From a virus (taxonomy: Duplodnaviria; Caudoviricetes): a stretch of 64,000 nucleotides of DNA. The translations under genes and the position numbers were made by a program. Below, piece after piece: positions 34,101-50,345 of the stretch (within the stretch, counting starts at the first letter, position 1; each line of letters starts with the position of its first letter). The stretch lies in IMG/VR virus record IMGVR_UViG_3300021387_001083, positions 1 through 64,000 of that record; one strand, given 5' to 3'. The notes below the pieces were generated by a model. That model did not search any database and was not told the DNA's origin. It worked only from the letters and a program-made list of their open reading frames with translations.

Positions 34101-36883
34101 ATCTTATTGTTTCAGGTACTTTCAATAACTTGCGTATCGCTGGTGAAATGGATTGCATTCTTGAAAAAGATGGTAGATTTTATATAGTTGATTTTAAAGC
34201 TAGTAAAAATGATCCATCAAAAGATGCATTTTACAAAACACAGCTAGCGTTCTATAAAGAAGCTTTACGTCAAATTCTTTCTGAAAATAATATAAATGAT
34301 GTGCCTATAGAAACTCTCGGTTTTATATGGTTATCTTCTACTTCGAAAAATGTATCATTAAAAACCACAGGTGATCTTGCGTTAAATCAACAAGTGTTAG
34401 GACCTTGGGCTGTTACTAAAGATGGTGTAACTCAATCTGTTGCAAACACTTATAATTGGGATGCTAGAATAAATAAGAAATATAACATAGAGGCTGATAA
34501 CAATACTGGCACTGTTATTAAAACAGAATCTGACGATGAAGGCATTGACTTTGATGATGACACTGATTCTGGTATGTTTAATTTAAATAATATGCCAGCC
34601 AGCAATGAAAGAAACAAACTTGTATCTGATGAATCTAGTTATACTGCTGCAGATATCAACAAAGAAGTTGAATGGATAAATCAAGTTTTACCACAACTTT
34701 CAAGGAATGAACAACTCATGATTGTTGATGGTCTTATAAAAACATCTAAACGTGGTGTTTATGCTTATGGCCAGCTTAAAAACAATGTTATAAAATTGTC
34801 AAGACAAGGCGTCAGAGGTATTGGTTTCCACGAAGTATTTCATTATATGTTTAATCTTGTTTTGAGTAATGAAGAACAAAATGAAATCTTCAGAGAAGCT
34901 TCTAAGAAATGGAACAATATTACCAATCCTATAGATTTAGAAGAAAAACTTGCAGACGCTTTTCAAGATTATGCTATCGACCAAGTTTATGGTGGCAGAG
35001 GTATTTTACCGGCAATGAAAAGATTCTTTAACAAACTTCTCTTGTGGATAAAACATGGTAAGACTATTGTACAACAGATGGACAATCTTTATAAAGACTT
35101 GAATGCTGGCAGATATATTGATGCTGAGGAACATCCTTTTGAAGGCGTTCGTTATCAAAAATATACATTTGAAATGCAACAAATAAAAGACCAAGCTATT
35201 GCTAATGGTACTTTTATGAAAGCTCCTAATGGTAAACCTACTAATCTTAATGAAAGACAATGGTTACAAGTTAGAACTAAAGCTTTTAAAAAATGGTTTG
35301 GCGATTGGGAAAGTGTTGCTGCTAGAATAGCTAATGCTAAAGTTATTTGGGGTCATCCTGGTATAGGTAAAACAGAATACTATAAAAATAACAAAAATGT
35401 TATAGATTTTGATAGTGTTTATAAACCTAGAATCAATAAAGAATTAGGACTTCCTGAAGGTGCTGAAGAACGTAAAAAATGGAGACGTGAGCATAGAGAT
35501 GAATATAGGCAAAAGATTCTTTCTTTATTTGATGAGGCTGTAGAGGATGCTAAGAAGCAGGGTAAACAACTATTAGTATCTGATATGGTTGTATTACAAG
35601 AAAGAGAAGATACTTTAGACCTTATTACTCAAATGTCTGAAGATACTTTTGCTAAAAGAAGCATGCAACGTAATGAACCTTATGATGATAATAGAAAACT
35701 TTGGAAAACTGATATAGACGAAAGTATATCTAAAGTATATGATAAATCTAAAGTAGTTAATACAGAAAAGTATCTTTCTGAACTTTATGAAGATGCTAAA
35801 AATGTTTCTAAAGTAGTAGATGAAAATGGTGAACCTTTAGTAGTTTATCATGGTACAACAGTTCCATTTACAACTTTTGATAAATCTAAACAAAATAGTA
35901 GATTTCCTTTTGGTTTAGGTACAAATGCTTTTTATTTTACTTCTAAAAAAGAAAATGCTGAAAAAATAGCTATAGGTGTTCATAAAGGAGATTTTCTTAT
36001 AAATAGTAAACCTTTATATAGCTCAGAATATCCTTGGGGGAATCCAAAATATATTAGTGAAGTTGTTGGATATAAAGTTGCTTCTGATTTTAAAAGTTTG
36101 ATAGAAGGTGCAAAAGATTTGTATTCAAAAGAGGTAATAGAAGACTATTTTAATAAAATAAATAAACCTAATACTACTATTCAAGAAATACAAGAAAGTT
36201 CTGATAACGTTATGGCTGTATTTTTAAATATAAAAAATATGGACATAAAAGATTACGAAGGAAAGAATCTTATGGATACTTCTTCAAAAGAATTTGATTC
36301 TTTTGTAAATAATAGTAAAGAAGGTGGTAAATTAGCTAATGTTAAAGATGGTAATATGAAATTAGCTGATACTTATTTTGTTAAAGAACCAAATCAAATT
36401 AAATCAGCTACTGATAATGTAGGTACTTTTGATCCAAACAATCCTGATATCAGATATTCTTTAGTCGATGATGTAGATCATGTAGGAAGACCTTTAACAC
36501 CAAAAGCTTATCAACCTATGATTGATAATATGGTAAACAATCTGCAATATGGTACAGATACCAATATTGATAATCAGTGGGGTTTGTTTGTTGATGATTA
36601 CTTTAGAAAATTCGGCATTGTAATTACTGGTCATAAAGTTAGAGGCAAATACAAAGTTGACAGTGTCACAAGAGGTTTTGTAGCACCTGAAGCAACTTCA
36701 ATTCAAAATGAAGATGGCACGATTAAATCTTTAAAAGAACTTAAAAATTCATCTGAATTTAGAAATGATTGGAACAATCTAACTGAATGGCAACAAACAG
36801 CTCTTGAAAATTCAGGTATGAATGAAGAGTTTTGGATAACTCTACCTAACGACATCAGAGATAACATATTACATTGCTTATAA
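28154..36883 (+). CDS. Giant virion cargo/polyvalent protein: N-terminal hydrophobic ejection region, PD-(D/E)XK nuclease-like, zincin HExxH, P-loop and ART-PolyVal-like domains
   Basis: 2909 aa. Motifs: IAGEMDCILE...IVDFKAS...QLAFY (about 33900-34350); GFHEVFH...EEKLADAF (34829-34962); GHPGIGKT (35351-35374); SKVVDENGEPLVVYHGT...FYFT...NQIKSATDN.GTFD.NNPDIRYS (35792-36460). Confidence 0.75.
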   Translation: MATLTGLNTQQGQNREAGRVNGQPLPDNPTIKNIRPITFGEAQQMMWSPRGIKNLTTIELPEDYGESRFDKRAWAPSQLYDLNELRAQEQTGAEKLFNGIAKGAVLFGTTFVTGVAELPVALATSLERGDWSGMWDNAITQMAYDVSQSVENVLPNYYTSREQTDPWYQHIWSANFIGDKFLKNLGFTAGAIASSAVTNNWMNALKIPQVMATILRSQKAGRFASAAIGSALQAYTESSIEAKQGMEDFVKTKGQLLDAEHERRLQEIEMMFPLQGENVVNVNTDKQALIDEENQAYVNAKTRLAMDSSKVGNFVLRNEMPLLFASSLFQFGRMYANGFGTARHINNAVRKSATEYGLRNIPGAGLAKGVGNAFMEGSEEFNQSMIQNIAANYYKEDVDNFYNASLDPTLTENTVDFMRSAGRSISDTWNDSSAWEEGFIGALTGGLGMVRIGKNAQNADVKLGKIGLDGGIIGDIAQARKERVRQQNIIDQVNSILGSKKISAMVRGANRNQMEQNRMDFAAMQGDAKTFKDAEFSQMISDIITIDQVDGLQDYKAMISSVLSDEALADPKYLQDLIQSTEKDINGKKEGPFAGMDNAEIVERLKKTRETLLDAVDKYKKIKDKIDINTEGVFSEEQLGTLTWMRAKLANWDERQKTMTGELVEDLKKLKDVADKKNLEIPELVVKEMGKVDAAQMASDILAASISEQGLKSIPLSGTIDDLINSISNLKTRAGSFFDADVDVKNNVKVHDALANWINSVGVIMGADTTVDIKETIQKMKDLAAIHEDVVKYNIQLADYLEHPERLAEDMSKQEKKAAKKQRKKENKKTVDAYNNADTKEDKDEVYDNADDSGKAAIDKDHKNDPEYQFDKHKKEFRDAVAKSIDEQDDIDGSVKAAAKEAYDAVVENTNTSNSDNLYYPYRALAEYREPLRTDIALSGDDNAIAEFDTQNNWVDFVIDRAIHKIYDSNNFKDSFRTYEAPASAVQPARDDVYVRMNDPAEQAPATKLGTDLPENELDTPIAPISSESLKEANEVPPTTTEQTPGNSGDKKRTLMNTIPFYDPEAKKKQDYRPFWEVDMERELQGLRMSDEAVKTYIDNIKSTGWKHIPPTETPEYIATITPTEENINNGTYRGYYDIWNFLEEHGAFRYVDQGLLEHGDKIQFAKVPSISDNVLFFVKKLNDDSFQIIGVVSARNDVIGIQELRNILKNSKSSNIGIQYKTNDGSVSTEKRNEVVDVYDVETTVMDIYNGNVPIIDEERSLKDIPNGRDVKIAVIKNGSFTGQDIEGLPIEPVNTTNMEGYIVALVPTAANTYFPVTLRTAPVSQTLFTDDNEFAKEIQETVKELNKATTVEVASNLMVELRKSLYFDDDLKYEYYFRDSKGVTHQTKDKNDTITTIGFGSKKQDAENNRIREENKNRPEDQQVPTKSSMEYVDIDRHDETSLKKLQEYILSKVVYYNVTPRNLNDPKYNNKLINSDILTTNVESLEVRSSWFGANYYDPNTKKFVQAVRFPSPIRGQATPVGGVNNENLKVVIKGKNNKGTNFTWYVDETNGKRIYYRKSADSKDFKLINDNGAINNLNNVLYIKRRFIPQEVERFKTDDKIDRAGLSKRYSNYIYFQDQNDKNIFHDYYVYPRFGNEYGIFKIDLNNPDNISFIIRQNNSDEYTNVLQQYLAKRYIPKQEAVKEVAKPTVGVSKDIGTSLAENWNGRVDIDKTEDADDVLKSLNIKLNPEPITLFWYSKKDIVTKTKGYKLPGKDLFVVFDDKTNFVVNENQSGDLNVASYRIISKNGYSIRKQDVDKRDIKITPTSIERMLRKISEDLTENQEKILNGYEGLNKIVQTVTPLPTETEQYTKVKDVLKTNSERFKNEKGEVNRTSGQYQTKDGELYLRFHALSDKGNGSFETPSDKVESIPPNEPIKRGIAFDTFMREYLSSKDFDKAKVELGKLVSADKDYTLSDEELNNIKTFVEEQLKDYNIISKDLIVSGTFNNLRIAGEMDCILEKDGRFYIVDFKASKNDPSKDAFYKTQLAFYKEALRQILSENNINDVPIETLGFIWLSSTSKNVSLKTTGDLALNQQVLGPWAVTKDGVTQSVANTYNWDARINKKYNIEADNNTGTVIKTESDDEGIDFDDDTDSGMFNLNNMPASNERNKLVSDESSYTAADINKEVEWINQVLPQLSRNEQLMIVDGLIKTSKRGVYAYGQLKNNVIKLSRQGVRGIGFHEVFHYMFNLVLSNEEQNEIFREASKKWNNITNPIDLEEKLADAFQDYAIDQVYGGRGILPAMKRFFNKLLLWIKHGKTIVQQMDNLYKDLNAGRYIDAEEHPFEGVRYQKYTFEMQQIKDQAIANGTFMKAPNGKPTNLNERQWLQVRTKAFKKWFGDWESVAARIANAKVIWGHPGIGKTEYYKNNKNVIDFDSVYKPRINKELGLPEGAEERKKWRREHRDEYRQKILSLFDEAVEDAKKQGKQLLVSDMVVLQEREDTLDLITQMSEDTFAKRSMQRNEPYDDNRKLWKTDIDESISKVYDKSKVVNTEKYLSELYEDAKNVSKVVDENGEPLVVYHGTTVPFTTFDKSKQNSRFPFGLGTNAFYFTSKKENAEKIAIGVHKGDFLINSKPLYSSEYPWGNPKYISEVVGYKVASDFKSLIEGAKDLYSKEVIEDYFNKINKPNTTIQEIQESSDNVMAVFLNIKNMDIKDYEGKNLMDTSSKEFDSFVNNSKEGGKLANVKDGNMKLADTYFVKEPNQIKSATDNVGTFDPNNPDIRYSLVDDVDHVGRPLTPKAYQPMIDNMVNNLQYGTDTNIDNQWGLFVDDYFRKFGIVITGHKVRGKYKVDSVTRGFVAPEATSIQNEDGTIKSLKELKNSSEFRNDWNNLTEWQQTALENSGMNEEFWITLPNDIRDNILHCL

Positions 36884-36886
36884 AAG

Positions 36887-36916
36887 AAAAGGGAGCCATA
36901 ACGGTTCCCTTTTTTT
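36887..36916 (+). terminator. Bidirectional-type terminator 1 at the convergence point
   Basis: AAAAGGGAGCC-ataac-GGTTCCCTTTT with an A-run before and a T-run after. Confidence 0.75.
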
Positions 36917-36927
36917 AGTATCTGGAA

Positions 36928-36966
36928 AAAATAAGGGAGGCTCTCTTTCGAGGGTCTCCCTTTATT
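36928..36966 (-). terminator. Terminator 2 at the convergence point (for the - arm)
   Basis: AAGGGAGGCTCTC-tttc-GAGGGTCTCCCTT, preceded on the + strand by an A-rich run (a T-run on the - strand). Confidence 0.7.
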
Positions 36967-36969
36967 GTT

Positions 36970-39900
36970 TTATCGTTTGTAAAATGGAATTGTTTCTTCA
37001 GGATGCAACATATTATACCAGTCATTATTAAATGGAAATAATGGGCTTTGATAAAATATTTTATATGCCTTTGTATGGCCTTTATAACGTCCTGAACGAA
37101 TCAAATCCTCTTCTTCAGTGGAATAATTGGCAGGATTCAATAGTTTGAATGTATCTATAATACCTTGCCATGTTCTTACATCTGCTGTAGGTGATTGAAT
37201 GATTTTAAACAGTTCATTTGGCAATAACAATGTAGGTGTAATGGCACCAATTTCAGTTCTCATTCTACGTAATTGGTATTCCATCATTTTTATTGCCCAA
37301 GGTCTATCTTTATCGTCATCCCAGTCAATAAGTATAAGTGCAAGTACTATAGCACCAAGTGTTGCCATTTCTGTTGCAGCACGTCTTACATTAGCTTTTT
37401 CTACATCTGTAAGTTCGTCTTTAAAAAGTTCCCAGTTAAACTCGCCATTTCTTATATCACGATATATTTGACCAAACAATCTGCCGACAGTATGATAATA
37501 TCCCTCAGTCCATTCGTCAAGATCAAAATTATAGTCTATACCGCGATATCTTCTGTTTACTGCAGGAACTATCCATTTACGGAAAATCATCGCCATACGG
37601 CCTATTGCAGTGCGTTGAAATGCGTTCATATCCTCAGTATTGTATATACCGTGCAGTCTATGGTTTATTTCACTTACTTTCCTTGAAAAATAATTCGTGA
37701 ATTCCTCTTGTGAAACTTCATTTTCCTTAAGTTTACCATGAGTTTTAGCTTCTTCTTTGGTTATGATTCTGTTACCATTACGGTCATGCAAACCGGTTTT
37801 CATTACAAGTTTGGCACCAAGACCTTGGTCTGTATCACCAAGTGTACCGTCTTCTTGTATAAATTTTCTGTCGTATGCTTCAGTGATTAAAACATCATTT
37901 CCTTCGATATCTTTGAGAGGTTCAGCATCAACCAATGAGAAAAATGTTCTATGTTGCATCCAATGTTCACCAGAATTCGTAGTAAAATACAGAAAGTCAC
38001 TACCGAACATTTTTTGAAACCATTGACGTCTGTCGAAACGGATATCCCTTATTTTACGGTCATATTCTTGCATGATGTTGTATTCATCATCAAATAATGC
38101 CATCATGCTTGTTTTTGCTCTCGAACCTATTTCAAGCATATAGTCAGGTAAATATTTTGCATAAGCCAAATCACCATGAGCAACATTTCTAGTATTAAAA
38201 AATTCCTTGGATTTGGCATCTATATCCATCATTATAACACCTTGGTTTATGTTTGCAAAACCTGCTAAGAAATTCAAAGCTAAACCATTAAGTGATGTCA
38301 GTTTATTTGATAAATCTGCAAGTTTGGATAAATCAAATGTTTGACCGAGAATTGTTATGGTACCTGCGTCAGCAAAATATCGTCCATATACCTGTGCAGA
38401 GAAAAAGTCATCTCTTTGTTGTGATATTCTTGTGCCAGTTTGTTTCAAGGCTTTTTGCTCGAATTCACGTCCCATAAATTTTATTTGTTCAACGATTGGT
38501 TTTCCACCTTCGGTCAGTTGAACTTCTTGGTTTCTGTCAAGAAAATCCCTTGCCACTTCAAGTGCATCAACGATATCATTCATGTTTTTATAGTTCACAG
38601 CCATATAAGCATATGCAGACATTGTTGAAACTATATCTGTCGATACATCATTTACATTGTCACCTCTTTGTATAAGTCTTCCTGATTTTGTAAATGTGTC
38701 TCCTCTGAGTTTTTGGTAATAAATCGGCAATCTGTTTATTGGCGTACTGTCAAATGTAAGGCGTTTTTTTATGAAAGCGTCCCCATATACAATTTCACCT
38801 TCCATACCGAAATCGACATCATCGGAACGTCTTATGACTTCATCTTTTAAAGATTCCACTATAGCTATGCCAGCACCTTTGATATTGCCTGCATCCTTAA
38901 CTCTTTCCACAAGGTCTTTTATAATTACAGGTACTGTATGAGTCTGTTGTCTTGTATTGGGTAGCCAGGAATCGAAAAGTTCTTTCATTTCAACCATTGT
39001 GTCATAGAATTCTTTCATAGCCTCATTGTTTTGAATTCTGTCATATTCAGGATTCAAATACATATCTGAAGGAACGTTGTATTTTGTTTTTTTGTCTTTT
39101 TGCAAGTGTTTGCTGTTCCATTCCTTTAGAGCGACATTTCTTTCTTTTCGTTGTGCTTTTGTCCATTTCGATCTATCTTCGCCGAATCTGTCGTTAAAAG
39201 ACTGTTCAAATTTGTTTTTGTCTATCCTATATTGTCCCCAGTTATATCTGCTGACAAAATTCAATGTGAGGTTTCCTTCATTATCTCTTTCAAATACGAA
39301 TGATTGATCTGTTATGCCAGCTTTTTCCAGTTTAAGACCTGCAGCTATAAGTTTCTTTTGATAGTCTATTGTTTCAAGTCTTGTTTTTGTATTTTGTTGT
39401 TTTACAGCTACTGCAAAAAGCTTGTTCATCCAGTCACCCGAATTCGTCATACTATTAAGCCATCTGTCAAGGAATGATATATCCGTAACAGCTTCATTGA
39501 CGAATCTGTCTACAGACATTTTTTCTCCTTTGTTTTTGCCAAAAGGAACGACAATTTCTTCACCCATAAAAGGTTTCATAAATGCTATGAATAATGGCTT
39601 TGCACTTTTGTCGTAAGCGTGTTCAAGTTCACTTGCAGCAAGAAAAGCACTGTCGACTATTGTCTTTATTTCGCCTTTAAAGAAACCAGTATCTATATTA
39701 TAGTTGGAATCTGTTGATTCTGCCTCATCATCTGCAGCATCTTTGATTTCTTTTAGGACATTTGTATAGCTGTTAAGGTAGTTTTTAACCTCTCTAAGCA
39801 CCTTGCATTTTTCATTTATAGACATATTGGGATTGCTTTCAACTTGTTTGATTCTGTCACTAAGGCTTTTGAAAGTGTTTAATGCTTTCTGCACAAACAT

Positions 39901-41178
39901 TGCTATACCCAAAGCTTGTCTTTGTTCATCGGTATTTTGGTATTTCTCCAATTTTGCAATGAATTCTTTTTCTTTGTCTATAAATTTCTTGTTTGCATAT
40001 GTGTCGTATATTGAAGCTCTCTTTATTTCGGTGTTTATAATTTTCTGTAAGAGCTTTATATCTCTGTCTACACGTTCATCAAGATGAAACAAAGTTCTAT
40101 TTACCTTTATAAGGTCAGACTTTAACACATCAGGATCTGTAAATACACTACTGGAAATTTTTTGGATGCTTGTTAAAGCTTCATCGACTAATTTTTGAAT
40201 TTCATTTTCATCCAGTCTGGAAAATTTTTGCTTAAAGACCTTTTTTAGCCTTTCTGAGAGGTTTTTGACGTTATCAGGCACAATTCCTTCACTCTCCAAA
40301 AAATATTGTCTTATAAGGCTTGTAATCGCTTCATGTGTTAAAGATTCCTTATTCCCATTGTATTTTTCATAATTCAAATCATATTCATCACCAAGAATAG
40401 CTTCTTCAAGATTGTTGTTTGAAATTATATTTACAAGTCTTTTTGCAAGTTCTTCATTCTTTAAGCATTCGTATACGAAATGCGAGAATTCTTCAGGCAA
40501 TTGCTGTTCTCCTCTTGAGCCTTTGGCAATCTTTATTATTGTTTTCAAACCATTAGCACCGTCTACCGCAGCCTTAAAGTCTATTTCGCCTGTTGCCAGT
40601 TCGTCTTGCAAATTGTCATAAGCATATACAGATACACCTGCCCTTTGCAATGCAGCTTTTATTTTATTGTTAAGTTCGTATGCTTTTTTAAAATCATCTG
40701 CAATTTTTCTTGTTGATTCTGAATAAGGTTCTACAGTTATAAACAGTTTGCGTCCTTTTTCGGTAGTAACGTGGTTAAGAATAGCAACGTAATTACCTTT
40801 CAAAGAATCATTGTCGTTGAATTTGATTATTTTTTCAACAGCAGATATATAATTCTCTGTATTGTCGTCAATTTGTCTATCGGTATTTAACTGTTGCTTC
40901 AGGTATTTTTGTATGCTTTCTTCATCCAAGTATTCTGCTAAATCAGTTTCTCTTAAAAGGTCACCAATATTCGGTTCGCCTTGTTCATTCAGTTCCACTT
41001 TCCCTTTCAGCAGTTCAAGATTAGCAGGACTTACAAGTTTAAGATATGTATCCACAACCTTGTTTCGTCTGTCTGGAAATTTTTTAGTGAAGGAAAGCAG
41101 GTCATTGAATAACCTGCTCTCCTCTTCATTATTGGTAACAGCATTTGTCACCATCGGTTTAAGATTACATGAAATCAT
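36970..41178 (-). CDS. Large virion cargo protein co-encoded with the RNAP (degenerate zincin EExxH, helical polyvalent-type C-terminus)
   Basis: 1402 aa containing EQQLPEEFSHFVYE and coiled coils. It starts 2 nt after the RNAP stop. Confidence 0.6.
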   Translation of the reverse strand: MISCNLKPMVTNAVTNNEEESRLFNDLLSFTKKFPDRRNKVVDTYLKLVSPANLELLKGKVELNEQGEPNIGDLLRETDLAEYLDEESIQKYLKQQLNTDRQIDDNTENYISAVEKIIKFNDNDSLKGNYVAILNHVTTEKGRKLFITVEPYSESTRKIADDFKKAYELNNKIKAALQRAGVSVYAYDNLQDELATGEIDFKAAVDGANGLKTIIKIAKGSRGEQQLPEEFSHFVYECLKNEELAKRLVNIISNNNLEEAILGDEYDLNYEKYNGNKESLTHEAITSLIRQYFLESEGIVPDNVKNLSERLKKVFKQKFSRLDENEIQKLVDEALTSIQKISSSVFTDPDVLKSDLIKVNRTLFHLDERVDRDIKLLQKIINTEIKRASIYDTYANKKFIDKEKEFIAKLEKYQNTDEQRQALGIAMFVQKALNTFKSLSDRIKQVESNPNMSINEKCKVLREVKNYLNSYTNVLKEIKDAADDEAESTDSNYNIDTGFFKGEIKTIVDSAFLAASELEHAYDKSAKPLFIAFMKPFMGEEIVVPFGKNKGEKMSVDRFVNEAVTDISFLDRWLNSMTNSGDWMNKLFAVAVKQQNTKTRLETIDYQKKLIAAGLKLEKAGITDQSFVFERDNEGNLTLNFVSRYNWGQYRIDKNKFEQSFNDRFGEDRSKWTKAQRKERNVALKEWNSKHLQKDKKTKYNVPSDMYLNPEYDRIQNNEAMKEFYDTMVEMKELFDSWLPNTRQQTHTVPVIIKDLVERVKDAGNIKGAGIAIVESLKDEVIRRSDDVDFGMEGEIVYGDAFIKKRLTFDSTPINRLPIYYQKLRGDTFTKSGRLIQRGDNVNDVSTDIVSTMSAYAYMAVNYKNMNDIVDALEVARDFLDRNQEVQLTEGGKPIVEQIKFMGREFEQKALKQTGTRISQQRDDFFSAQVYGRYFADAGTITILGQTFDLSKLADLSNKLTSLNGLALNFLAGFANINQGVIMMDIDAKSKEFFNTRNVAHGDLAYAKYLPDYMLEIGSRAKTSMMALFDDEYNIMQEYDRKIRDIRFDRRQWFQKMFGSDFLYFTTNSGEHWMQHRTFFSLVDAEPLKDIEGNDVLITEAYDRKFIQEDGTLGDTDQGLGAKLVMKTGLHDRNGNRIITKEEAKTHGKLKENEVSQEEFTNYFSRKVSEINHRLHGIYNTEDMNAFQRTAIGRMAMIFRKWIVPAVNRRYRGIDYNFDLDEWTEGYYHTVGRLFGQIYRDIRNGEFNWELFKDELTDVEKANVRRAATEMATLGAIVLALILIDWDDDKDRPWAIKMMEYQLRRMRTEIGAITPTLLLPNELFKIIQSPTADVRTWQGIIDTFKLLNPANYSTEEEDLIRSGRYKGHTKAYKIFYQSPLFPFNNDWYNMLHPEETIPFYKR

Positions 41179-41180
41179 GA

Positions 41181-44100
41181 TTAATTCTTACATAAGTTTT
41201 TACTTTTTTCTATTTCTTTATCGATTGCTAGCAGTTGTATTTTAATAGCGTTACGACTTTCATCGTCTTCATTAGCTTCATAATCTGACAACAAAGCATT
41301 TCTTTCGTTGTAAAGTGCTTCTAAATCAGCATCATTCTCTTCAACCTCAGTTGGAGTAGTCTTTATTTCAGGGGTATCTTCATGAGGATCGGAAATATTT
41401 TGCGGTGCTTGTGATGTTATTTGCTGTGTTGTAAATCTAGCTTTAAAAGCCTGTTCATCAGAAATGTCTCGACCGTTGATATCTCTAAATTTCCATCCTT
41501 TAGGAGCTAAAATACCACTTCTAATACCTAATTTCATTGCAGCTTTAATACCAGCCTCATCATAACCAGTTTGTCCACCACTTCTGATAGTCTCTATTTT
41601 AGTTTTTAGATTAGGATGATTTAACACTCTATTGAGTAAGTTATAGACATATTCATCAACTTGCTCTTGGGTGTATTTACCCTTTAAAGTATAGATACCA
41701 TTACCTGCAATATTAAGAGATTTGGCATTTACCTCGTTTAATTGGTCAACTATAGAATTTACTAACTTATCAGTAATTTCTGGATTATTGGTATTAACAG
41801 GAATATATTTTTTACCATTCTCCAAAACAGCTTTTTTAGTAAGTCTTTCTCCAGCAGAGTTAAAATCAACAGCCAAAGCAATAGTAGCGTCAGCTTTGGC
41901 ATTCTTAATGGTTCTTTCTCTATAACCATTAGAAGATTCTTCTTTAAATAAGGGCTCTGCAATAGTAGGTTCTTGAGAAGTAGGCTGACTGGTAAATTCT
42001 TCAAAATTCATAACTAACTGATTGGGGTCATGGTGATATTCCCTCATCAATCTGTTTCTAACTTCCATAAGAATTCTAGGAAACTCAGTACCCCATTTAC
42101 CTTTATCTTGGGTATGAGTTAGAGTAGCATAGCCTGTTTCAAAAAGTTTTTGTCTAGCTTGAGGATTCTGTCTAAAAGACTGTTCAATTAAGACTTCCAT
42201 AGTTTTAGAAGAGATTGCCTCCCAATCTTCTAATATAGTCTTACTACTATAAGAGACCTTGCCCATAGGAATAGTCCTTCCAAGTTTTTTAATTTCTGAA
42301 GGATTTTTAGAAGCAAGTATTTTATCTATTATCTCATTACATTTTTCCTCATTTTTACGTCCTTCTTCACTTTCATCGTTTATATAGTATCCTCTAGCAT
42401 AAGCAGCTTTAATAGCTTGAAATGCTTGCTCTACAGAATCAAATGAAGTACTTGCTAAAAATTCTTCTACTCCATCAGAATCTAAAAATTCCCATTCAGA
42501 TTTTAAATCAAAGAAATCATCATTAGTAAAACTTGAAAAGTCAAAAGGTCTTTCTGCAAAATTACTTAGTTCCACATTCTCTCCAGTACCTGCATAAATA
42601 TTAATAACTTCTGTTTTACTAGGTTCTTTCATGTTATTTTTGTTATTATTTTTCTTTGCAACATATTTTGTATCAATGACATCAACAAGTTCACTAGGAT
42701 TAGATTGAGCATCGTATACAAGAATATGTTTTGCTATACCAAGAGGATTGATTCTATCATATACAAGAGTTTCATCGTCAGATTCATCTTCATTCTTTTT
42801 ATAATAAACATTTTCACCATTGGAAACGATTGTTATATAAGGATGATAAGTGTTTTCAGATCTATTGATACCCTTACGAAGTATCAATTGTTCAGCACCA
42901 GAGCCTCTGACATTTTTGACATCGACAAAAAGTTTGTCTTCAACATTGTATACAGTTTTGCCTTTATCGTTAACACTTGCTATATTTGAAAAGGTTTCTA
43001 TAGGAACTTCAGGCGACAAAGATCTTTCATTCAAATTGTTTAGTATAAACATCTCCAAAAAGCCTGAAAGATTAAAATTGCCTTTTTCCATATTTCTGAT
43101 ACAGTCAATGTAATCACTGTTTACAGATTCTCTTGTAAACGTATTGGCAAGATGTATATATGTATCAGGACCGAAATCCCAAGCCGTCCTTAAACCTGCA
43201 TAGAAAAACAGTTCGTCAGCAAGTTGTCTGATCTTAGGATCTTTCGACTCAAACAAAGAACCCCAATAATTACCTATAATCCATTTAGAACGATTGTTCA
43301 AATGTCCAACGTTCATAAAATTAATTGTCGGCGCATTACAGGATTTTGTTTCTGAAAAAGTTCTTAACCTGGAAGTAAACATGTTGTTTTTGAGTTCAGG
43401 CATTGTCATACTCATGGTTTTGAATTTAAATGGAAAATCATATACCCATTTTCTTAAAATGTCTGCTTTGGTCAATACTTTTCCTGTCACAGGGTCTTTT
43501 TTGCCTACTTCATAAACTTTACCGTCAATGTCTGTATAGCTAGAATAATAATTGTTTTCACCACCGAAAGCAGTAAATACATAAAGTCTTGAATCCCTAT
43601 AAAATCTGTTTACTAACTTTGGACTTAATTTGCCGGTTTTAGTAATAGACCTTAACTGGTCAAGCAATTTCGGATACTGACTGTTAAATTCAGGAAAATA
43701 ATCCTTGAACAATACATTGGCAGATTCAATACCAAACGTAAACGACGCTTGTATGGCAGGGAAAGGTGAGTCGGAAAACATACTTAAAACTTCATCAGGA
43801 TTGCTGTCAATAAGCTGCATTATCCTGTCAAGCATGTTTACACGGACAATTGACCTGACTCCTGTCAAAGGATACGATTTTGCTTCGGAATCTTGTAAAA
43901 TTTGTCTTGCTACAGCAATCCTGTTCTCGGTAGTAGCTATATCAGGACCAGCAGCACCAGCAGAAGTATCTGCTTTACAGAACTTTACAATATCACCTAA
44001 GACTTTTGCTATCTTAAAGATATTATAATAAAGTTCTCCCATTGCAACTTGATCTTGAATATATTTATAATGTTCCTCATTATTAAGTTGATTGAGTTCC

Positions 44101-47100
44101 AATCTTCTTGCCTGAAGTTTATTATGAAACATATTAGCTTTAGTCCAAGTATAACCACCAGCTTTAAGTTTGTCAAACGAGAAAGATTTTTGATCCTGTT
44201 CATTTAACATATTTTTCCATCTATAAAGAACTGTGGTTATTGCTGATTCTTTACTTTTATTGCCTAAGTTATCAAAATACTCTTTTGTCATTTCTCTTAC
44301 AATAGGCTGTGTAAGTAACAGGTTTGTAGCATACTTATCATGACCAATTCTAGAGTTTGTGATTGCAACGTCAGCAGTAAAAGTATTCTGGTTCGTATCA
44401 GACAGAGTAGGGTCTTTAACGTCATCTACAGAACTGTCGACATGCTCAGATACATTTTTCGAAATGACCACATCGTGAGCACCAATCCTTTCATGTAATG
44501 AGTTATTTTCCCATTCGTCGATTTTGTATACAAACTCAGGTTTTATTGCAACATTGGTATGCTGCAGCAAAGCGTGATTTACACTCTGGTCAGCATTAAT
44601 GCCGATCATCATACCTGAAGATGAAATTCTGGAATGGTTCTTAACCCAAACAACAGGTGACAATGGATTGTCAACTGTTTTGTACTTGTCAAGTATTTTA
44701 TCCAACTCTTTGAGATCTAAAGTCTCAATTTTTTTGAAAAGATCTTCATCGGATGTTACATTAAATTGTTCTTTTAAGGCTTCAATTTGATCTAAAGGAA
44801 CGTTTTCTGAAAGTCTTACAACACGAGCAGATTTCTTTTGTTCATTAAAACCACCTGGATTCAACAGTTTACCCATTGTTTCGGAGTTTGTAAGTATACC
44901 AAAGACAAAATCGAGTATAATGTTGTTTCTTGCTTTACGAGCTTTCTTAAAGTCTTCATTTTGATCCAAAGCAGATTTACTGAAATCGTATTGTATCTTT
45001 CTCACCTGACCGTCTTCGAGAGTCTCAAGACCAGGAAGCATAAGATACAAGTGGTCAATATCAAAGTCAGAACCTGAAATAGTAACCCAATCAGCAGGAA
45101 GGATTATCGATGAACCTAAAGATTGAGGTAGAAAACCCTTTATTTTTAAAGGTAGCATTGAAAATTTATCTTCAGTAGGAATTCTGAATCCTACAATGTT
45201 AAGCAATTCATCACGATACTCTTCAGGAATGTCTTCAATTTTTAAAATACCGTTTTCGTCAGTATGTAAATATTGCAATAAGTCTGAATTATATACAGGA
45301 AGATAGCATTCTGCATAGGCAATATGACTTTTTGGATTTCCTGTAACACTGCCTTCTTCAGATTTCTTATAGGCTTCAAAAGTCTTGTATTTGTCTTTCA
45401 TTGATTGATTTTCATTGAATTCCTTTTCATTAAGAATAAGTTCACCTTTTGAATTGGTAAATCTTATTGCAAGTTCTTCATCATAACCGAAAGCTGAAAT
45501 CTGTACAGCACTACCACCATCAATCTGTTGTTTTGTCACATTATTTTTGATGATGCTGTATAACAGACTTTGAACCTTCCTACTTTGAACAGGATCTCCC
45601 AAAGGTATGTTGAAATATTTTTCACCAGTTTCGGGGTCGGTGACAAGAGTACACGCCTCCAAAAGATCTGGAGAAAATGTAGCACTTGACATAACTTGGT
45701 CTTTAAGTAATCTCTCAAGACTTTCAATATCAGTAAATTCATCTTTTACCGCTTTAAAGTCCATCATTATGTTTGCTGTACGTACATAATGATAAAGTCT
45801 TTTTGCATCTTTGAATGGTAAGAGTTTTTTACCAGTTTCTTTGTCTATTGTAAAAGCTACAGGAACACCAAAGATATTTACTGAATCTCCAGCAAAATAA
45901 GACATACCAGGAATTTCAACCAAAGTGTCATCACTTATATCAGCAGTGATTAACTTTGTTAACTGGGTACCAAGCAACTGTGTCTTATCAAACAAGTGTT
46001 CGGGATTTGGAGTCTGAATTACATAATCATGTAAATCAAGAGTATGTACAAATTTGGGATCTGCTTGTACTAAATTATTCAGTTGAGACACAATGGTCTT
46101 TTTTGTCTTGTTAAAATCACCGGTATCTTCAACAGAACTTAAGTCTATGACATGGTTAGCACCATCTTTAATTGCTGAACTGAAAACATATACGTCAACA
46201 TTGTCACCGCCAAATTCATTTAAAGCAGAAAGAACAGGAGAAGTATTTGCCATAGAAGCAAGCTGGGCATACATTGTAAGCAATACTGTTTCAGAAGTTT
46301 TTATCTGTAACGGTGCTTTAAAATGATGTTCGTTTCCAGCAGCATCCGTCCAAGCTATATCTTGGTCTGTATATACATACGGTTTTATAGCATTATAGAC
46401 AGTAAGAAAATCTTGCATATCAAACTCACCTTTCATAAATCTTTGATAGGATTCTTCTTTCTGTTCGTTCCAATCATTAGACATTATAGCAATCTTTCTA
46501 TAAGAAGATAATTTTCTAAATGATTGTGCATCAGTAATATTGTTTCCTTTATAAAGACTTAATGCAAGTTTTCTTTCAGCAGGATTCTTCAAATAAATGT
46601 TAAGTGTTCTTTCAATATCTTCATAAGAAGGAGAAGGTTTTTCTGAATCTTTTAAAAATACTGCTTTTTGATAACCGTCAGAAACTTTTTTACCGTTCCA
46701 TGTGGCATTTACATTCAAACGCATACCAGGAGCATGAAATTGTTTTGCTCTTTTTATCCATTCTTCAAGATTTTTATAGAAAGCAAGATCTCCTGTAATC
46801 AATTCGATCATTTCAGCTTGTGCATACATGGAATTGTAAAAGAATTCTCTAAAAGCTTCTGTAGTAGGATCTGTTTTGTTTATATTATCTTTAGCATTAT
46901 TTATCATATTGCTTATTGATTCACTTTCCTGATAAAGATCACCAAGATAATCCAAAGCTGGTCTGACAACACTGATTATTTTTGTGATTTTGTCCATATT
47001 TACATTGGAATAATCTATGTTGTTTCTCAAAACATAAGCAGTCTTGTCCTTATTTAGCACTATATAGGGTTCTAGAAAGTTATAGAGAATGTTTTCGATA

Positions 47101-50024
47101 TTTGAAAACAACAAATTGTTACGAATGGTTCCTCCATTGTGTAAAGTTACAAGTGTTTCCCAAGAATCTCTACTTAATAATCCACTGTTTATTAATCTAT
47201 TATATAAATCCTCATTAAACGGAAACTCAGCAATGGCGTTGATATCAATCAATTTATTCTCATCTTGTTTGACAATATTAAGTGCTGTTAACAAAGGATT
47301 CATAAAATGCCTTTCTCTACTTATAGTACCAAGAGTTTTGTTTACACCTGTCGAACTATTGTCAAGAAGTCCCCAATTTCTCCAATCGTCCATTGCTTTT
47401 CTAAAGTCACTTTCAACATATTTCAAGACTTCTTGTTTTATGATGTTTTTCAAATCGGTATTCGAAAAGTCTTCTTTAGCGTCCTTTATAAGATTTATGA
47501 TATGATATTCTCCATTATCGTCTTTTACATTCAAACCAGGGAAAAACCTGAAAGAATCTCCAGTCTTATCATAACTTGCTATAAGATCTTTGTCTTGCAA
47601 CACGCCTTCTTTGACAAGTCTGGCTCTTTCTCTGACTTCCATTATACGATTATATTCCTGCTTGATGATATTTACGAATTTATCAAGAATCTTATCTTGC
47701 GCAGTACCGTTTTCATCAGATAAATATTTCGGCAAAGTCATAACATAACCAAATCCTGCTTCAGCTGGTAAAGGTAAATAATATCTTGCCCAGTTTGATT
47801 CAGTTTCACCGTCAAAAGTCCTATATTGTGCTATCTGTGATATAGCAGCTTCCCTATCTCCGTAAGTTTCAAAATCTTTTGTTACACCACTGTTTTTTTG
47901 CTGCAATACAACGCCGATATCAAACATTTCCTTGAAGTCAGTGAGACAACGCCTCAAATCAGAATCATCGCCAACATTACCTTCCAGGAGTTTAAAAATA
48001 TCAATGTTCCATTCATTTGAATTCTTGTCATAAAACCAATCATATTTTTTATATTTTTCATTAATATAATAATCAAAGTAATTGGAATATCTGTCTTGAA
48101 ACCCTTCGGGAGCATTTTTATTTTTCATTTCCTGTCTTAATATACGCATAAGTCTAAAGATAAAGTTATCTTTTGCGTGTGCATATCTTGTTGTGTCTCC
48201 TTCTCTGATATTGGCTTCTATAGCGTTTTTCACAGAACTCTGTAAATATCTAGCTAACGTTCTATAACGTTTACCGAATTCATTTATAAGATCGAATCCT
48301 TCTTTATAAGCATTGATTTTATTTTCACCTATTGTATTTGCTATCGTAAAAATACTAGAACAAATGGCTTCGTAAGGATCGTATGTCTTGTAGTGAACTC
48401 TTTCTCCTTCTGCTATTTCTACAGGATTACCTTTTTTATCTATCGCATATATGTTTGTAAGTATGTTTTCAAGATCATCAGAATCAACATCGATACCTAG
48501 TGAATTTAACATGATAGTCATGTTCTTGAATAAAGGTTGCCCTTTCATTACAGAGTTACGTCTTGCTTCCAGCAATTCACGAGTTATGCCTTCTTTTTGT
48601 GCATTTTTATCGGAATATGTATTTAACGATGCCTGTAAAAGTTTTACGATTTTCTTTGCATTTTCAGGTATAATGCTACGGTCTTTGCCATATACAGACA
48701 TGTTTTCATCACCAATGACATCACCATTTTGATAATTGTTACGCCAAGTATCATATAAAGTTTTTATTGGCTCAGAATCATTAAGATTTTTTATACCAAT
48801 TTTAATAATTCCATTAGCATCAACATTTATAAGTTCTTTATGATATTTTATGAAAGCGCAACACATGTCGTTAAATAAAGCAGTGAATTTTTTACCGGCA
48901 TCTTGTTGGTCTTTGACATTAGGACTTTTAGTTTCTATTTCAGAAATCAATTGTTGAACCCAAGGGTAATATTTTTTCATTTCCTTTAATAATGGAAGCA
49001 TATCTGTGTCATCAACCATTGATGTCAACCAATTTATCAATGCTGTATGAGCTTCATTAAAATCAACAAAACGCGGGTTTCCAAGGTCGTCATATTTAAC
49101 ATTTCCGTTCTTGTCAACTTGATATATATTATCAAGCATAAGTCTTGTGATTTTCGATAAAGAAGCTTCGTTAGACACCTCAGAATAATGGTTCATCCAA
49201 TGGTCTTTCTGATGCATTCTTTCACTGTCATCTTTATTTGCGTAAGTATCTTCAATAGTATCGTCAGAATTGGAATCTGCTTGAACATCTTCCACATTAT
49301 CATTATTGATATCTATAGAGATATTCATACTCCAACGAATCATATTACATGCTTGTTCAGCAAGAGTCGTGAAGTTGTTTACTATTTTTACCTCTGCATC
49401 TTTTGCATAAAGAATTTTATTTCTGATTGCAGTTATTTCTTTCTCCGAAGGTTCTGTGATTTTAGAAGTTTCGGCTTCAACAAGTTTGTCAGTCTTTGTA
49501 ACGATATGACGTATCATTTTGGCTTTTATATCGTTGAAAATCGCACTTGGTCCACCTAACGATCTTATAGCCTCAGATACAGACATTCCTGGATTTTTTG
49601 CTTGTTCGTTGATAACTATTTTTTGAAATAATTTATATAAAGATGTAACTCGGTCCTGTCTTATGACAAACGGTATTTCTCTTCGTAAAGCTCTAAGGCG
49701 TTCTATTGCATCAGTAGATTCAGCTCTTAAACCAAACTTTGAAAAATCCACTTTCAGATAAGGTTCTGCAATCGTAAATTTCGGAAGTTTTGTGTCTTTC
49801 TTTAACAAATCTACAAGATAAGCCGTATTTGTGCGCTGTGCTTCAGTTGTGTTATGTGACTTTATAAAGTCTATTAATTCATCTTCTTTAGGAAAATCAT
49901 CCATTGTTTTCTTATTGTCTCTTTGCCATTGTACAATATATGCAGCAATGGCTCTATTAGGCAATTTTTTTGAAATTTTTGGATAATCTTTCAAATTGTT
50001 TATTCTTATACAATATGGTAACAT
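41181..50024 (-). CDS. crAss-like virion DNA-directed RNA polymerase (fused beta/beta'-like double-psi barrels) with C-terminal NADAR and SLOG domains
   Basis: 2947 aa. The catalytic GSDFDID (DFDID at 45054-45068) is preceded by GFRIPTE. The NADAR-like region is at about 42040-42605 and the SLOG-like region at about 41434-41930. Confidence 0.85.
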   Translation of the reverse strand: MLPYCIRINNLKDYPKISKKLPNRAIAAYIVQWQRDNKKTMDDFPKEDELIDFIKSHNTTEAQRTNTAYLVDLLKKDTKLPKFTIAEPYLKVDFSKFGLRAESTDAIERLRALRREIPFVIRQDRVTSLYKLFQKIVINEQAKNPGMSVSEAIRSLGGPSAIFNDIKAKMIRHIVTKTDKLVEAETSKITEPSEKEITAIRNKILYAKDAEVKIVNNFTTLAEQACNMIRWSMNISIDINNDNVEDVQADSNSDDTIEDTYANKDDSERMHQKDHWMNHYSEVSNEASLSKITRLMLDNIYQVDKNGNVKYDDLGNPRFVDFNEAHTALINWLTSMVDDTDMLPLLKEMKKYYPWVQQLISEIETKSPNVKDQQDAGKKFTALFNDMCCAFIKYHKELINVDANGIIKIGIKNLNDSEPIKTLYDTWRNNYQNGDVIGDENMSVYGKDRSIIPENAKKIVKLLQASLNTYSDKNAQKEGITRELLEARRNSVMKGQPLFKNMTIMLNSLGIDVDSDDLENILTNIYAIDKKGNPVEIAEGERVHYKTYDPYEAICSSIFTIANTIGENKINAYKEGFDLINEFGKRYRTLARYLQSSVKNAIEANIREGDTTRYAHAKDNFIFRLMRILRQEMKNKNAPEGFQDRYSNYFDYYINEKYKKYDWFYDKNSNEWNIDIFKLLEGNVGDDSDLRRCLTDFKEMFDIGVVLQQKNSGVTKDFETYGDREAAISQIAQYRTFDGETESNWARYYLPLPAEAGFGYVMTLPKYLSDENGTAQDKILDKFVNIIKQEYNRIMEVRERARLVKEGVLQDKDLIASYDKTGDSFRFFPGLNVKDDNGEYHIINLIKDAKEDFSNTDLKNIIKQEVLKYVESDFRKAMDDWRNWGLLDNSSTGVNKTLGTISRERHFMNPLLTALNIVKQDENKLIDINAIAEFPFNEDLYNRLINSGLLSRDSWETLVTLHNGGTIRNNLLFSNIENILYNFLEPYIVLNKDKTAYVLRNNIDYSNVNMDKITKIISVVRPALDYLGDLYQESESISNMINNAKDNINKTDPTTEAFREFFYNSMYAQAEMIELITGDLAFYKNLEEWIKRAKQFHAPGMRLNVNATWNGKKVSDGYQKAVFLKDSEKPSPSYEDIERTLNIYLKNPAERKLALSLYKGNNITDAQSFRKLSSYRKIAIMSNDWNEQKEESYQRFMKGEFDMQDFLTVYNAIKPYVYTDQDIAWTDAAGNEHHFKAPLQIKTSETVLLTMYAQLASMANTSPVLSALNEFGGDNVDVYVFSSAIKDGANHVIDLSSVEDTGDFNKTKKTIVSQLNNLVQADPKFVHTLDLHDYVIQTPNPEHLFDKTQLLGTQLTKLITADISDDTLVEIPGMSYFAGDSVNIFGVPVAFTIDKETGKKLLPFKDAKRLYHYVRTANIMMDFKAVKDEFTDIESLERLLKDQVMSSATFSPDLLEACTLVTDPETGEKYFNIPLGDPVQSRKVQSLLYSIIKNNVTKQQIDGGSAVQISAFGYDEELAIRFTNSKGELILNEKEFNENQSMKDKYKTFEAYKKSEEGSVTGNPKSHIAYAECYLPVYNSDLLQYLHTDENGILKIEDIPEEYRDELLNIVGFRIPTEDKFSMLPLKIKGFLPQSLGSSIILPADWVTISGSDFDIDHLYLMLPGLETLEDGQVRKIQYDFSKSALDQNEDFKKARKARNNIILDFVFGILTNSETMGKLLNPGGFNEQKKSARVVRLSENVPLDQIEALKEQFNVTSDEDLFKKIETLDLKELDKILDKYKTVDNPLSPVVWVKNHSRISSSGMMIGINADQSVNHALLQHTNVAIKPEFVYKIDEWENNSLHERIGAHDVVISKNVSEHVDSSVDDVKDPTLSDTNQNTFTADVAITNSRIGHDKYATNLLLTQPIVREMTKEYFDNLGNKSKESAITTVLYRWKNMLNEQDQKSFSFDKLKAGGYTWTKANMFHNKLQARRLELNQLNNEEHYKYIQDQVAMGELYYNIFKIAKVLGDIVKFCKADTSAGAAGPDIATTENRIAVARQILQDSEAKSYPLTGVRSIVRVNMLDRIMQLIDSNPDEVLSMFSDSPFPAIQASFTFGIESANVLFKDYFPEFNSQYPKLLDQLRSITKTGKLSPKLVNRFYRDSRLYVFTAFGGENNYYSSYTDIDGKVYEVGKKDPVTGKVLTKADILRKWVYDFPFKFKTMSMTMPELKNNMFTSRLRTFSETKSCNAPTINFMNVGHLNNRSKWIIGNYWGSLFESKDPKIRQLADELFFYAGLRTAWDFGPDTYIHLANTFTRESVNSDYIDCIRNMEKGNFNLSGFLEMFILNNLNERSLSPEVPIETFSNIASVNDKGKTVYNVEDKLFVDVKNVRGSGAEQLILRKGINRSENTYHPYITIVSNGENVYYKKNEDESDDETLVYDRINPLGIAKHILVYDAQSNPSELVDVIDTKYVAKKNNNKNNMKEPSKTEVINIYAGTGENVELSNFAERPFDFSSFTNDDFFDLKSEWEFLDSDGVEEFLASTSFDSVEQAFQAIKAAYARGYYINDESEEGRKNEEKCNEIIDKILASKNPSEIKKLGRTIPMGKVSYSSKTILEDWEAISSKTMEVLIEQSFRQNPQARQKLFETGYATLTHTQDKGKWGTEFPRILMEVRNRLMREYHHDPNQLVMNFEEFTSQPTSQEPTIAEPLFKEESSNGYRERTIKNAKADATIALAVDFNSAGERLTKKAVLENGKKYIPVNTNNPEITDKLVNSIVDQLNEVNAKSLNIAGNGIYTLKGKYTQEQVDEYVYNLLNRVLNHPNLKTKIETIRSGGQTGYDEAGIKAAMKLGIRSGILAPKGWKFRDINGRDISDEQAFKARFTTQQITSQAPQNISDPHEDTPEIKTTPTEVEENDADLEALYNERNALLSDYEANEDDESRNAIKIQLLAIDKEIEKSKNLCKN

Positions 50025-50044
50025 ATGCTTAAATTTTAAAGATG

Positions 50045-50052
50045 CAAAGATA
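50045..50052 (-). promoter_or_regulatory. Bacteroidota -7 element (TATCTTTG on the - strand) upstream of the RNAP gene
   Basis: CAAAGATA on the + strand at 50045-50052, 21 nt from the RNAP start codon. The -33 box is not clear. Confidence 0.6.
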
Positions 50053-50106
50053 CGAAGAATTTTTGAAATAAAAAAGTTAAAAAATGTAAAAATTTATACA
50101 CAACTG

Positions 50107-50156
50107 GAAAAAAATAGGAAAGTATATAGTAAATTGCTTTATTGTATACTTTCCTA
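50107..50156 (-). terminator. Long-stem terminator after HicA, insulating the RNAP unit
   Basis: The - strand reads TAGGAAAGTATA-CAATAAAGCAATTTACTA-TATACTTTCCTA followed by TTTTTTT. Confidence 0.7.
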
Positions 50157-50161
50157 ATTCT

Positions 50162-50344: not shown

Positions 50345-50345
50345 G

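Follow-up and report, generated by a model that had tools for sequence, protein, structure and literature searches.

A mobile NADAR-SLOG cassette in a crAss-type virion RNA polymerase

Why should an RNA polymerase that a phage probably packs into its virion carry domains related to ADP-ribose (ADPr)? The question is raised by a stretch of 64,000 nucleotides (nt) of phage DNA, positions 1 to 64,000 of the IMG/VR record IMGVR_UViG_3300021387_001083 (hereafter the window), in which a giant open reading frame (ORF A) encodes a polymerase homologue with a NADAR and a SLOG domain, both within its final seventh. Crassvirales are the most abundant human gut phages, and to our knowledge almost nothing is known of how they cope with host immunity. 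The locus shows that the packaged giant proteins of these phages carry swappable cassettes related to ADP-ribose. An original prediction, made from the DNA alone, took the two domains for a plausible anti-defence fusion, in which the first enzyme to read the injected genome brings along its own ADP-ribose eraser. Here, we ask where the module begins and ends, what its domains are, how it is distributed, and what it might act on.

A cassette between polymerase body and tail

The features of ORF A needed for this comparison are the following.

41181..50024, minus strand: giant ORF A, by homology to 6VR4 a crAss-type virion RNA polymerase of 2947 amino acids (aa), bearing the cassette
44262..46889, minus strand: polymerase core homologous to phi14:2 gp66 (aa 1046-1921; HMMER alignment to 6VR4)
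45054-45068, minus strand: DFDID metal-binding motif (aa 1653-1657)
41403..42643, minus strand: in-frame NADAR-SLOG cassette of 1.24 kb (aa ~2462-2874, ~413 residues; blastp and blastn breakpoints)
41184..41402, minus strand: acidic C-terminal tail of 73 aa (aa 2875-2947), kept in relatives that lack the cassette

The cassette has exact borders. Three polymerases (P0292, P0293 and P0294, ~2540 aa) are 95, 86 and 85% identical to ORF A over aa 1 to ~2470; they keep both flanks, lack aa ~2462-2874 and have no Pfam domain. In these, '...DTKYVAKK' is joined by a short linker to '...SDPHEDTPEIK...', which belongs to the final 73 residues of ORF A. At the nucleotide level, blastn breakpoints against L005 (the contig of P0292) and L008 fall at 41402/42644. 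The window and L005 are colinear over 29897-56935 at 90-94% identity, and these 27 kb contain only two large indels: 41403-42643 (NADAR-SLOG) and 35170-36453, the ADP-ribosyltransferase (ART) cassette of ART-PolyVal type in a second giant protein, C. The G+C content of the cassette is that of the rest of ORF A. Since more distant relatives also lack NADAR-SLOG, its gain in the lineage of the window appears more parsimonious than its loss elsewhere. The domains had been placed at the C-terminus of the polymerase; they are near it, but the true end of the protein is the conserved acidic tail behind the module. This tail has a net charge of -12, is 93% identical to the end of P0292, is also conserved in P0293 and P0294, was not found in more distant polymerases, and could be a packaging or interaction signal. 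A cassette with such borders, present or absent at 95% polymerase identity, provides a testable natural experiment.

The NADAR and SLOG cassettes of Crassvirales giants are sporadic and, judging from their relatives, mobile. The window NADAR is 95% identical to that of P0002, from a bovine-metagenome phage, where it sits between ART-PolyVal and a downstream polymerase core only 24% identical to that of the window. For SLOG, P0004-P0007 have copies with 83-91% identity to that of the window, and ART-PolyVal is present in them too. Among the 120 best SLOG-bearing giants, ~97 contain a polymerase core, which SLOG mostly follows but in some cases precedes, and ~20 have NADAR, in either order. Seen from the polymerase, the module is rarer: the SLOG family PF12694 accompanies ~14 and the NADAR family PF08719 two of the 120 closest cores, and 50 IMG/VR crAss-like records sampled by polymerase core include four with SLOG, two with NADAR and seven with ART-PolyVal. 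The survey of crAss-like polymerases that the original prediction called for thus finds the module in some of them, but sporadically and at variable positions relative to the core. Homologous modules lie on either side of the core, have ART, helicase or further payload domains as neighbours, or form proteins of their own. The giants of relatives also bear domains of the ART, helicase, RNase H, kinase and GNAT types. Because homologous cassettes vary in position and neighbours, or are free-standing, the polymerase looks like a delivery vehicle, and the proposal of an eraser serving the template of its own polymerase is not favoured.

Named phages show the same variation. In PhiCrAssBcn2, SLOG lies close to the N-terminus of the polymerase; in cr10_1, it lies towards the C-terminal end of a giant of 4460 aa; and in cr126_1, a giant that bears the annotation 'DUF1768 domain-containing protein' begins with NADAR. 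PhiCrAssBcn2 and crAss001 are both cultured Kehishuvirus phages of B. intestinalis, and the polymerase of the former is 99.4% identical to gp50 of the latter, plus a 196-aa SLOG cassette after residue ~81 (regions compared: 11737-19563 of L001, PhiCrAssBcn2, and 3109-10347 of L092, crAss001). This type of cassette is found in only 5 of ~30 Bacteroides phage records; besides PhiCrAssBcn2, the otherwise 99% identical phages PhiCrAssBcn1, 3, 20 and 25 have it. The cultured pair, with and without it, is a ready natural experiment.

That ORF A is a crAss-type virion RNA polymerase, as had been proposed, follows from its homologues. Searched against all PDB sequences with phmmer, it matched phi14:2 gp66 (6VR4) in three regions (E 4.8e-22), with its DFDID (aa 1653-1657) aligned onto the DFDID of gp66. 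It is 37% identical to crAss001 gp50 ('putative RNA polymerase') over ~860 aa by tblastn, and the 100 phage records matched in this way are all crAss-like. Megablast of 36000-51000 against the phage collection gave no match. A profile search with the single polymerase core returned no relatives, so we used instead the profile of a six-sequence core alignment (A4), which did find them and in which D614, D616 and D618 are invariant. In crAss001, gp47, gp49 and gp50 were found in virions by mass spectrometry, at ~6 copies each, and were proposed to be ejected partly unfolded (PMC10172136). By its homology to gp50, the ORF A protein is probably packaged and ejected as well.

The NADAR and SLOG domains

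Within the cassette, the following elements can be placed.

42030..42617, minus strand: NADAR domain (aa 2470-2665; AlphaFold2 (AF2) model), with its Pfam core at nt 42084-42578
42429-42431, minus strand: NADAR Glu2532
42408-42410, minus strand: NADAR Lys2539
42114-42116, minus strand: NADAR His2637
aa 2493-2527: acidic insertion of NADAR, charge -9
41952..42029, minus strand: acidic linker rich in Pro, Thr and Gln from NADAR to SLOG (aa 2666-2691), net charge ~ -5
41415..41951, minus strand: circularly permuted YpsA/cpYpsA-like SLOG domain (aa 2692-2870; Pfam and AF2)
41565-41582, minus strand: SGGQTG loop of SLOG (aa 2815-2820)

The motifs that had been quoted for both domains are present in the translation of 41181-50024 (minus strand), and both domain calls hold. 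Pfam PF08719 matches aa 2483-2647 with 42.8-48.4 bits (cut-off 35.1; 46.8 bits in the genome search), and the NADAR segment alone matches it with E 1.6e-12. We aligned relatives domain by domain and built family profiles from 41 of them for NADAR (A2) and 34 for SLOG (A3). A2 matches YbiA of E. coli (2B3W, E 2e-16) and PnNADAR of Phytophthora (8BAU, E 3.5e-12), and the same two structures are the sole significant Foldseek matches of the AF2 model (mean predicted local distance difference test score, pLDDT, 91.2), with E 5e-5 and template modelling (TM) scores of 0.55/0.64 for 2B3W, and E 7.5e-4 for 8BAU. Glu2532 and Lys2539 are invariant in the 41 relatives and align to YbiA, PnNADAR and T4 AdfN; they are the equivalents, seven residues apart, of E43/K50 in PnNADAR and E36/K43 in T4 AdfN, a pair whose mutation impairs function (PMC11543638, PMC11825919).

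The last strand is more distinctive. It reads L-T-H-T-Q-D...W-G, with His2637, Asp2640 and Trp2644 conserved in at least 90% of the relatives and His2637 at the end of strand 165-167 of the AF2 model. The register is L-T-H here, L-V-E(-H-T) in YbiA and L-K-H(-S) in T4 AdfN; the Glu of YbiA has no counterpart, and HMMER opens a one-residue gap there. In described NADARs this position is Glu in the YbiA type, Asp in the DarT1-linked type and His in the phage type (PMC11125620, PMC11543638), and the L-x-[E/D/H] register of the window fits the phage rule. The equivalence of the C-terminal His to that of T4 AdfN is read from this motif register, because hhalign of the NADAR family with AdfN covers the N-terminal motif only (probability 56%). 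Taken together with the model, the conserved residues make the window NADAR look real, catalytically competent and of the His or 'phage' type. A DarG1-type NADAR (BC4488 family) was ruled out, since the last-strand residue is His rather than Asp and the linked ART is an ART-PolyVal. So was the N-glycosidase of riboflavin intermediates represented by YbiA (NCBIfam TIGR02464), matched with 27.3 bits against an equivalog cut-off of 73.7.

The SLOG domain is matched by PF12694 (cpYpsA) with 46.2 bits (cut-off 26.2), in two swapped pieces: aa 2694-2773 align to profile positions 46-123, and aa 2813-2844 to positions 1-32. Profile A3 shows the same swap against 3IMK, with profile 154-190 on chain residues 5-41 and profile 37-121 on residues 52-136. 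Both comparisons thus bear out the permutation that had been recognized by eye. The AF2 model (pLDDT 93.2) finds 3IMK as its best structure (Z 9.0, root-mean-square deviation 2.5, 107 residues; next match 6.6), a match that spans only the part of SLOG ahead of the swap; YpsA, LOG, DprA and ThsA are not listed among the top 50 structures (Foldseek, VIA-align). Checked by such models, as had been suggested, the folds therefore lead to 2B3W/8BAU for NADAR and to 3IMK for SLOG, and catalytic-type residues are present.

The order of the two halves is shared by phrog_10774, which is colinear with the window SLOG (E 8e-30), and by free phage proteins of 183-202 aa. On these alignments, the domain is permuted relative to cpYpsA, and its order is the normal one for a large phage family and not peculiar to the fusion. 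The profile finds 2010 proteins at E <=0.001 (HMMER, 1.84 billion cluster representatives), and a pattern-based scan of 185,579 prokaryote species genomes finds only 26 loci, mostly on contigs of metagenome-assembled genomes (MAGs) and Pseudomonas plasmids. Family A3 has 26 invariant columns at ~50% pairwise identity, and the residues of SGGQTG.DE, PKG, RT..N, D.T and NIAGN are invariant or nearly so. This pattern suggests a specific ligand or reaction, and makes this large, strongly conserved phage family attractive for biochemistry. The permuted SLOG repeatedly adjoins, or shares a chain with, helicases of the Dda/PIF1 type (proteins P0036, P0060, P0064, P0080, P0086, P0089, P0091 and P0110, besides matches in phage records), for example helA of Vibrio phage ICP1, other Vibrio phages and several crAss-type giants. 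The association with helicases hints at a SLOG role linked to nucleic acids.

What the cassette may act on

The reading that we prefer, although we hold it as likely to be wrong as right, is that the cassette acts on base-linked ADP-ribose of nucleic acids, with the host or the phage's own ART as the writer. It would work as follows. A mobile in-frame payload cassette, made of a His-type NADAR, a putative ADP-ribosyl-glycohydrolase, followed by a permuted YpsA-like SLOG, sits in the linker between the polymerase body and the 73-aa tail. Because homologous polymerases are packed and ejected with the DNA, the enzyme would be delivered pre-made and would enter the cell ahead of any phage gene expression, following the logic of polyvalent virion proteins. 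NADAR would then cleave ADP-ribose from nucleobases (guanine, possibly cytosine) of the incoming phage DNA or of the first transcripts, and the basic SLOG might bind or further process an ADP-ribose-type nucleotide. The polymerase would mainly be a vehicle, and proximity to the template at most a bonus. Host ADP-ribosyltransferases are a tentative candidate for the writer of the adducts; a more doubtful one is the ART-PolyVal of giant C, which the phage would pack alongside.

The biochemistry of homologues gives this reading its substrate. Every NADAR type tested in the studies cited here, one phage NADAR included, hydrolysed guanine-ADPr in vitro (PMC11125620), and several also hydrolysed cytidine-ADPr (PMC11125620, PMC12945103); thymidine-ADPr was left unreversed (PMC11125620). 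T4 AdfN (gp30.3), also among the NADARs assayed in PMC11125620, is a phage NADAR that defeats DarTG1 by stripping ADP-ribose from DNA (PMC11825919). The idea of an anti-defence fusion keeps this precedent, and the presence or absence of cassettes among near-identical phages fits an accessory function in an arms race; the DarT loci that we sampled, described below, weaken DarT1 as its target.

The original prediction considered the module alone and did not connect it with the ART-PolyVal cassette that the same phage carries on another giant, at a distance of ~6 kb.

28154..36883, plus strand: giant ORF C, convergent with A and B (2909 aa; Pfam), with a PD-(D/E)XK nuclease domain (aa 1977-2043) and ART-PolyVal
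35170..36453, plus strand: ART-PolyVal cassette of giant C (aa ~2340-2767), with its Pfam core at nt 35819-36430; missing in L005

This cassette is also clean and in-frame. It is absent from the 91%-identical L005, the closest relative, where it co-varies with NADAR-SLOG, and L008 has a GNAT+ART version instead. Over the first 50 residues, its identity to the beginning of the P0002 ART region is 94%. The Pfam match stretches 140 profile positions over 204 residues, so that the ART domain probably contains an insertion. ART shares one polypeptide with NADAR in P0002 and with SLOG in P0004-P0007, and the split arrangement of the window recurs in L009 and L126. Of the nine phages whose cassettes reach 78% identity or more, eight have ART-PolyVal among their giants, compared with a base rate of 7 in the 50 polymerase-sampled records (Fisher p 2e-5, with the relatedness of the phages ignored), and in NADAR-sampled IMG/VR records all nine ART copies lie within ~3 kb of NADAR. 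These data offer a candidate writer/eraser pairing. We give limited credence to its full form, a split pair gained and lost together, in which ART-PolyVal would modify host nucleic acid or protein and NADAR-SLOG would keep template and transcripts clean. The strict rule that NADAR or SLOG needs ART was rejected, since most NADAR- and SLOG-sampled records are without ART-PolyVal.

Several observations weigh against base-linked ADP-ribose of nucleic acids as the substrate, or against the writers proposed for it. Any action of this protein, or of members of its SLOG family, on a substrate is a prediction. Of 401 genomes in a sample of the order to which a Bacteroidales MAG belongs (a host order assumed for the phage from what is known of Crassvirales), 37 have DarT (PF14487), and none of these 37 has NADAR beside DarT. 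At the four best DarT loci (L120-L123), DarT is followed by a macrodomain protein of ~347 aa, as in DarTG2. Since these four loci are of the macrodomain type, and the NADARs tested do not remove thymidine-ADPr (PMC11125620), the case for an anti-DarT1 target is weakened. In one study, a phage NADAR active in vitro failed to rescue DarT1 toxicity (PMC11125620). A DNA-binding extension has been described for DarT1-linked NADARs (PMC11543638), and the window NADAR, with a net charge of -10 (SLOG +6), is unlike both this extension and the basic T4 AdfN (+2.6). As for the phage's own writer, only 9 of the 43 records sampled by NADAR and 12 of the 42 sampled by SLOG (records of 60 kb or more) have ART-PolyVal, set beside the 7 of 50 sampled by polymerase. 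ART also occurs without the module, in L008 (with GNAT) and in the complete genome G038, and its adjacency to NADAR may mean no more than that both can insert at the same permissive sites of payload arrays. Finally, according to Iyer et al. (2022, PMC9503650), the NADAR, SLOG and Macro domains of DNA viruses co-occur, fuse and are often virion-associated, and their predicted targets are mainly soluble ADP-ribose derivatives.

Two further searches bear on defence genes: DarT was sought in the 84.6-kb phage record with no match, control genomes giving no match either, and PADLOC returned a weak, unnamed match only.

The prediction of soluble targets leads to a rival that we hold rather improbable, a signal eraser or sponge. 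NADAR and SLOG would degrade or sequester soluble messengers or toxins derived from ADP-ribose at entry, such as the cyclic ADP-ribose (cADPR) isomers of Thoeris/TIR or ADP-ribose-1''-phosphate (ADPr-1''P). YpsA-like SLOG domains of host systems serve as sensors of cADPR variants (PMC9503650), an acidic NADAR suits DNA binding poorly, these polymerases carry SLOG far more often than NADAR, and ~70% of SLOG-bearing phages are without ART-PolyVal. Yet no NADAR or YpsA-like SLOG is known to act on signals of this kind, all NADAR types tested in the cited studies remove base-linked ADP-ribose (PMC11125620, PMC11543638, PMC12945103), and ~6 copies per virion (PMC10172136) are little enzyme against an amplified second messenger. 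It also seems unlikely that the module is only the eraser arm of a co-ejected pair, limiting or reversing the phage's own ART-PolyVal and sparing phage DNA, RNA or cargo while ART strikes host targets (the probability that we attach to the own-ART reading overlaps that of the nucleic-acid reading). Such a pair would account for the joint change of both cassettes relative to the 90-94% identical L005, for the single-chain and split combinations, and for the counts of eight in nine relatives and nine in nine adjacent copies, and toxin-antitoxin pairs of ART and NADAR are already established (PMC11543638, PMC11125620). T4 (L091, 1455-3503 and 6308-6766) offers a loose parallel, in that alt, the gene of a packaged ADP-ribosyltransferase, and the NADAR gene 30.3 (adfN) are ~3 kb apart. 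A dedicated pair does not account for the 34 of 43 NADAR-bearing and 30 of 42 SLOG-bearing viral records without ART-PolyVal, nor for ART without either module in G011, G012, G032 and G037 besides L008 and G038; in the part seen, the phage of P0008 has SLOG without ART, and in the polymerase-sampled set ART and module overlap in 2 of 6 cases (p 0.19). Shared insertion hot spots in payload arrays could produce the same adjacency.

Two explanations remain. In one, which we regard as very improbable, it regulates the polymerase, by reversing the ADP-ribosylation of the virion enzyme or of other proteins, or by processing NAD-capped 5' ends of transcripts. Such coupling is possible in mechanistic terms, the many polymerase cores among SLOG-bearing giants (~97 of the 120 best) would suit it, and molecules derived from NAD caps have been named as possible substrates (PMC9503650). 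However, polymerases 95% identical to ORF A do without the module, its place with respect to the core varies, the same domains are free or beside helicases in unrelated phages, and the NADAR studies cited here report no activity on protein-ADPr. The other, in which the module is a housekeeping YbiA-like N-glycosidase of riboflavin intermediates or an inactive remnant of recombination, is scarcely credible. The weak match to TIGR02464 is in its favour, but it stays far below the cut-off (27.3 versus 73.7 bits) and the YbiA-type Glu is unmatched; moreover, polar residues are strongly conserved in both domains, and the cassette is intact and in frame, with the G+C content of its gene.

Known systems and the remaining locus

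The closest general precedent is that of the polyvalent proteins of Iyer, Burroughs, Anand, de Souza and Aravind (2017), which in the summary given by PMC9503650 are giant, virion-linked multidomain proteins with ART as the commonest domain. ORF A fits this pattern, with polymerase, NADAR and SLOG in one chain, variable between relatives and linked to virions by homology. Giant size, variable effector domains, predicted early injection and shuffling between elements are shared. Here, however, the carrier is a crAss-type virion RNA polymerase with two partner giants (crAss phages are absent from the account in PMC9503650), and the payload is inserted cleanly and in frame, as cassettes in which even near-identical phages differ. 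The mobile cassette of the window, predicted to process ADP-ribose and carried by a probably packaged polymerase, is a variant of the known polyvalent-protein strategy and not a new kind of system. A literature search, with subscription papers outside it, turned up no account of a crAss-type polymerase bearing NADAR or SLOG; in public records, the automatic label 'DUF1768 domain-containing protein' is already attached to such giants.

Among individual relatives, T4 AdfN, which removes ADP-ribose from DNA, shares the LSNFA...E...K motif and the L-x-H-[ST] last strand of a phage NADAR, but is a free, early, basic protein of 152 aa, whereas the window NADAR has 196 aa with an insertion, is acidic, and is joined to SLOG in a probable virion protein. 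The viral NADAR-SLOG(-Macro/DUF4326) fusions of PMC9503650 have the same domain superfamilies with a YpsA-like SLOG, and early or virion deployment has been proposed for them; outside RNA-virus polyproteins they typically stand alone, in contrast to a cassette inside a 2947-aa polymerase. The phi14:2 gp66 and crAss001 gp50 polymerases share the homologous core with its aligned DFDID and the same three-giant block, but our searches matched neither accessory domain in them (2194-residue chain and 2412 aa, respectively), and the window protein has ~413 residues extra. In DarT1-NADAR (DarTG1) and YarT-YbiA pairs (PMC11543638, PMC11125620), an ART writer is likewise genetically linked to a NADAR eraser; these are two-gene operons, whereas the window has ART-PolyVal and a His-type NADAR, both on giant cargo proteins of a lytic-type phage. 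Finally, cpYpsA, the 'putative molybdenum carrier' (PF12694; 3IMK), has the motifs SGGQTG.D, PKG, RT..N..D.T and NIAG and the same Rossmann-like fold (Z 9.0), but the halves are swapped in the window SLOG, and the phage form is a sister family of its own, phrog_10774.

The rest of the window has the gene layout of a crAss-like phage; the source is an IMG/VR virus contig of 84.6 kb, 84% complete by estimate.

Plus strand: structural module with the major head protein (phrog_11589, E 7e-81) and a virion structural protein
28154-36883 (plus), 36970-41178 (minus) and 41181-50024 (minus): giant ORFs C, B and A, in this order after the structural module
36970..41178, minus strand: giant ORF B (1402 aa), directly downstream of A and 97% identical in L005
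Minus strand, beyond the giants: replication module with ribonucleotide reductase (RNR) and DNA polymerase

Giant B has no Pfam or PHROG match, and is likened to the virion cargo protein gp49 of crAss001 by position and length only, with no alignment behind the pairing. By synteny, the three-giant block is common to the window and to phage records of the phi14:2/crAss001 type. In some relatives (P0012, P0072, P0074, P0015, P0020, P0050 and others), the three giants are fused, some such proteins having 3400-5000 aa, with polymerase, SLOG and a B-like part in one chain, or a C-like part, polymerase and SLOG in chains of 4000-5000 aa.

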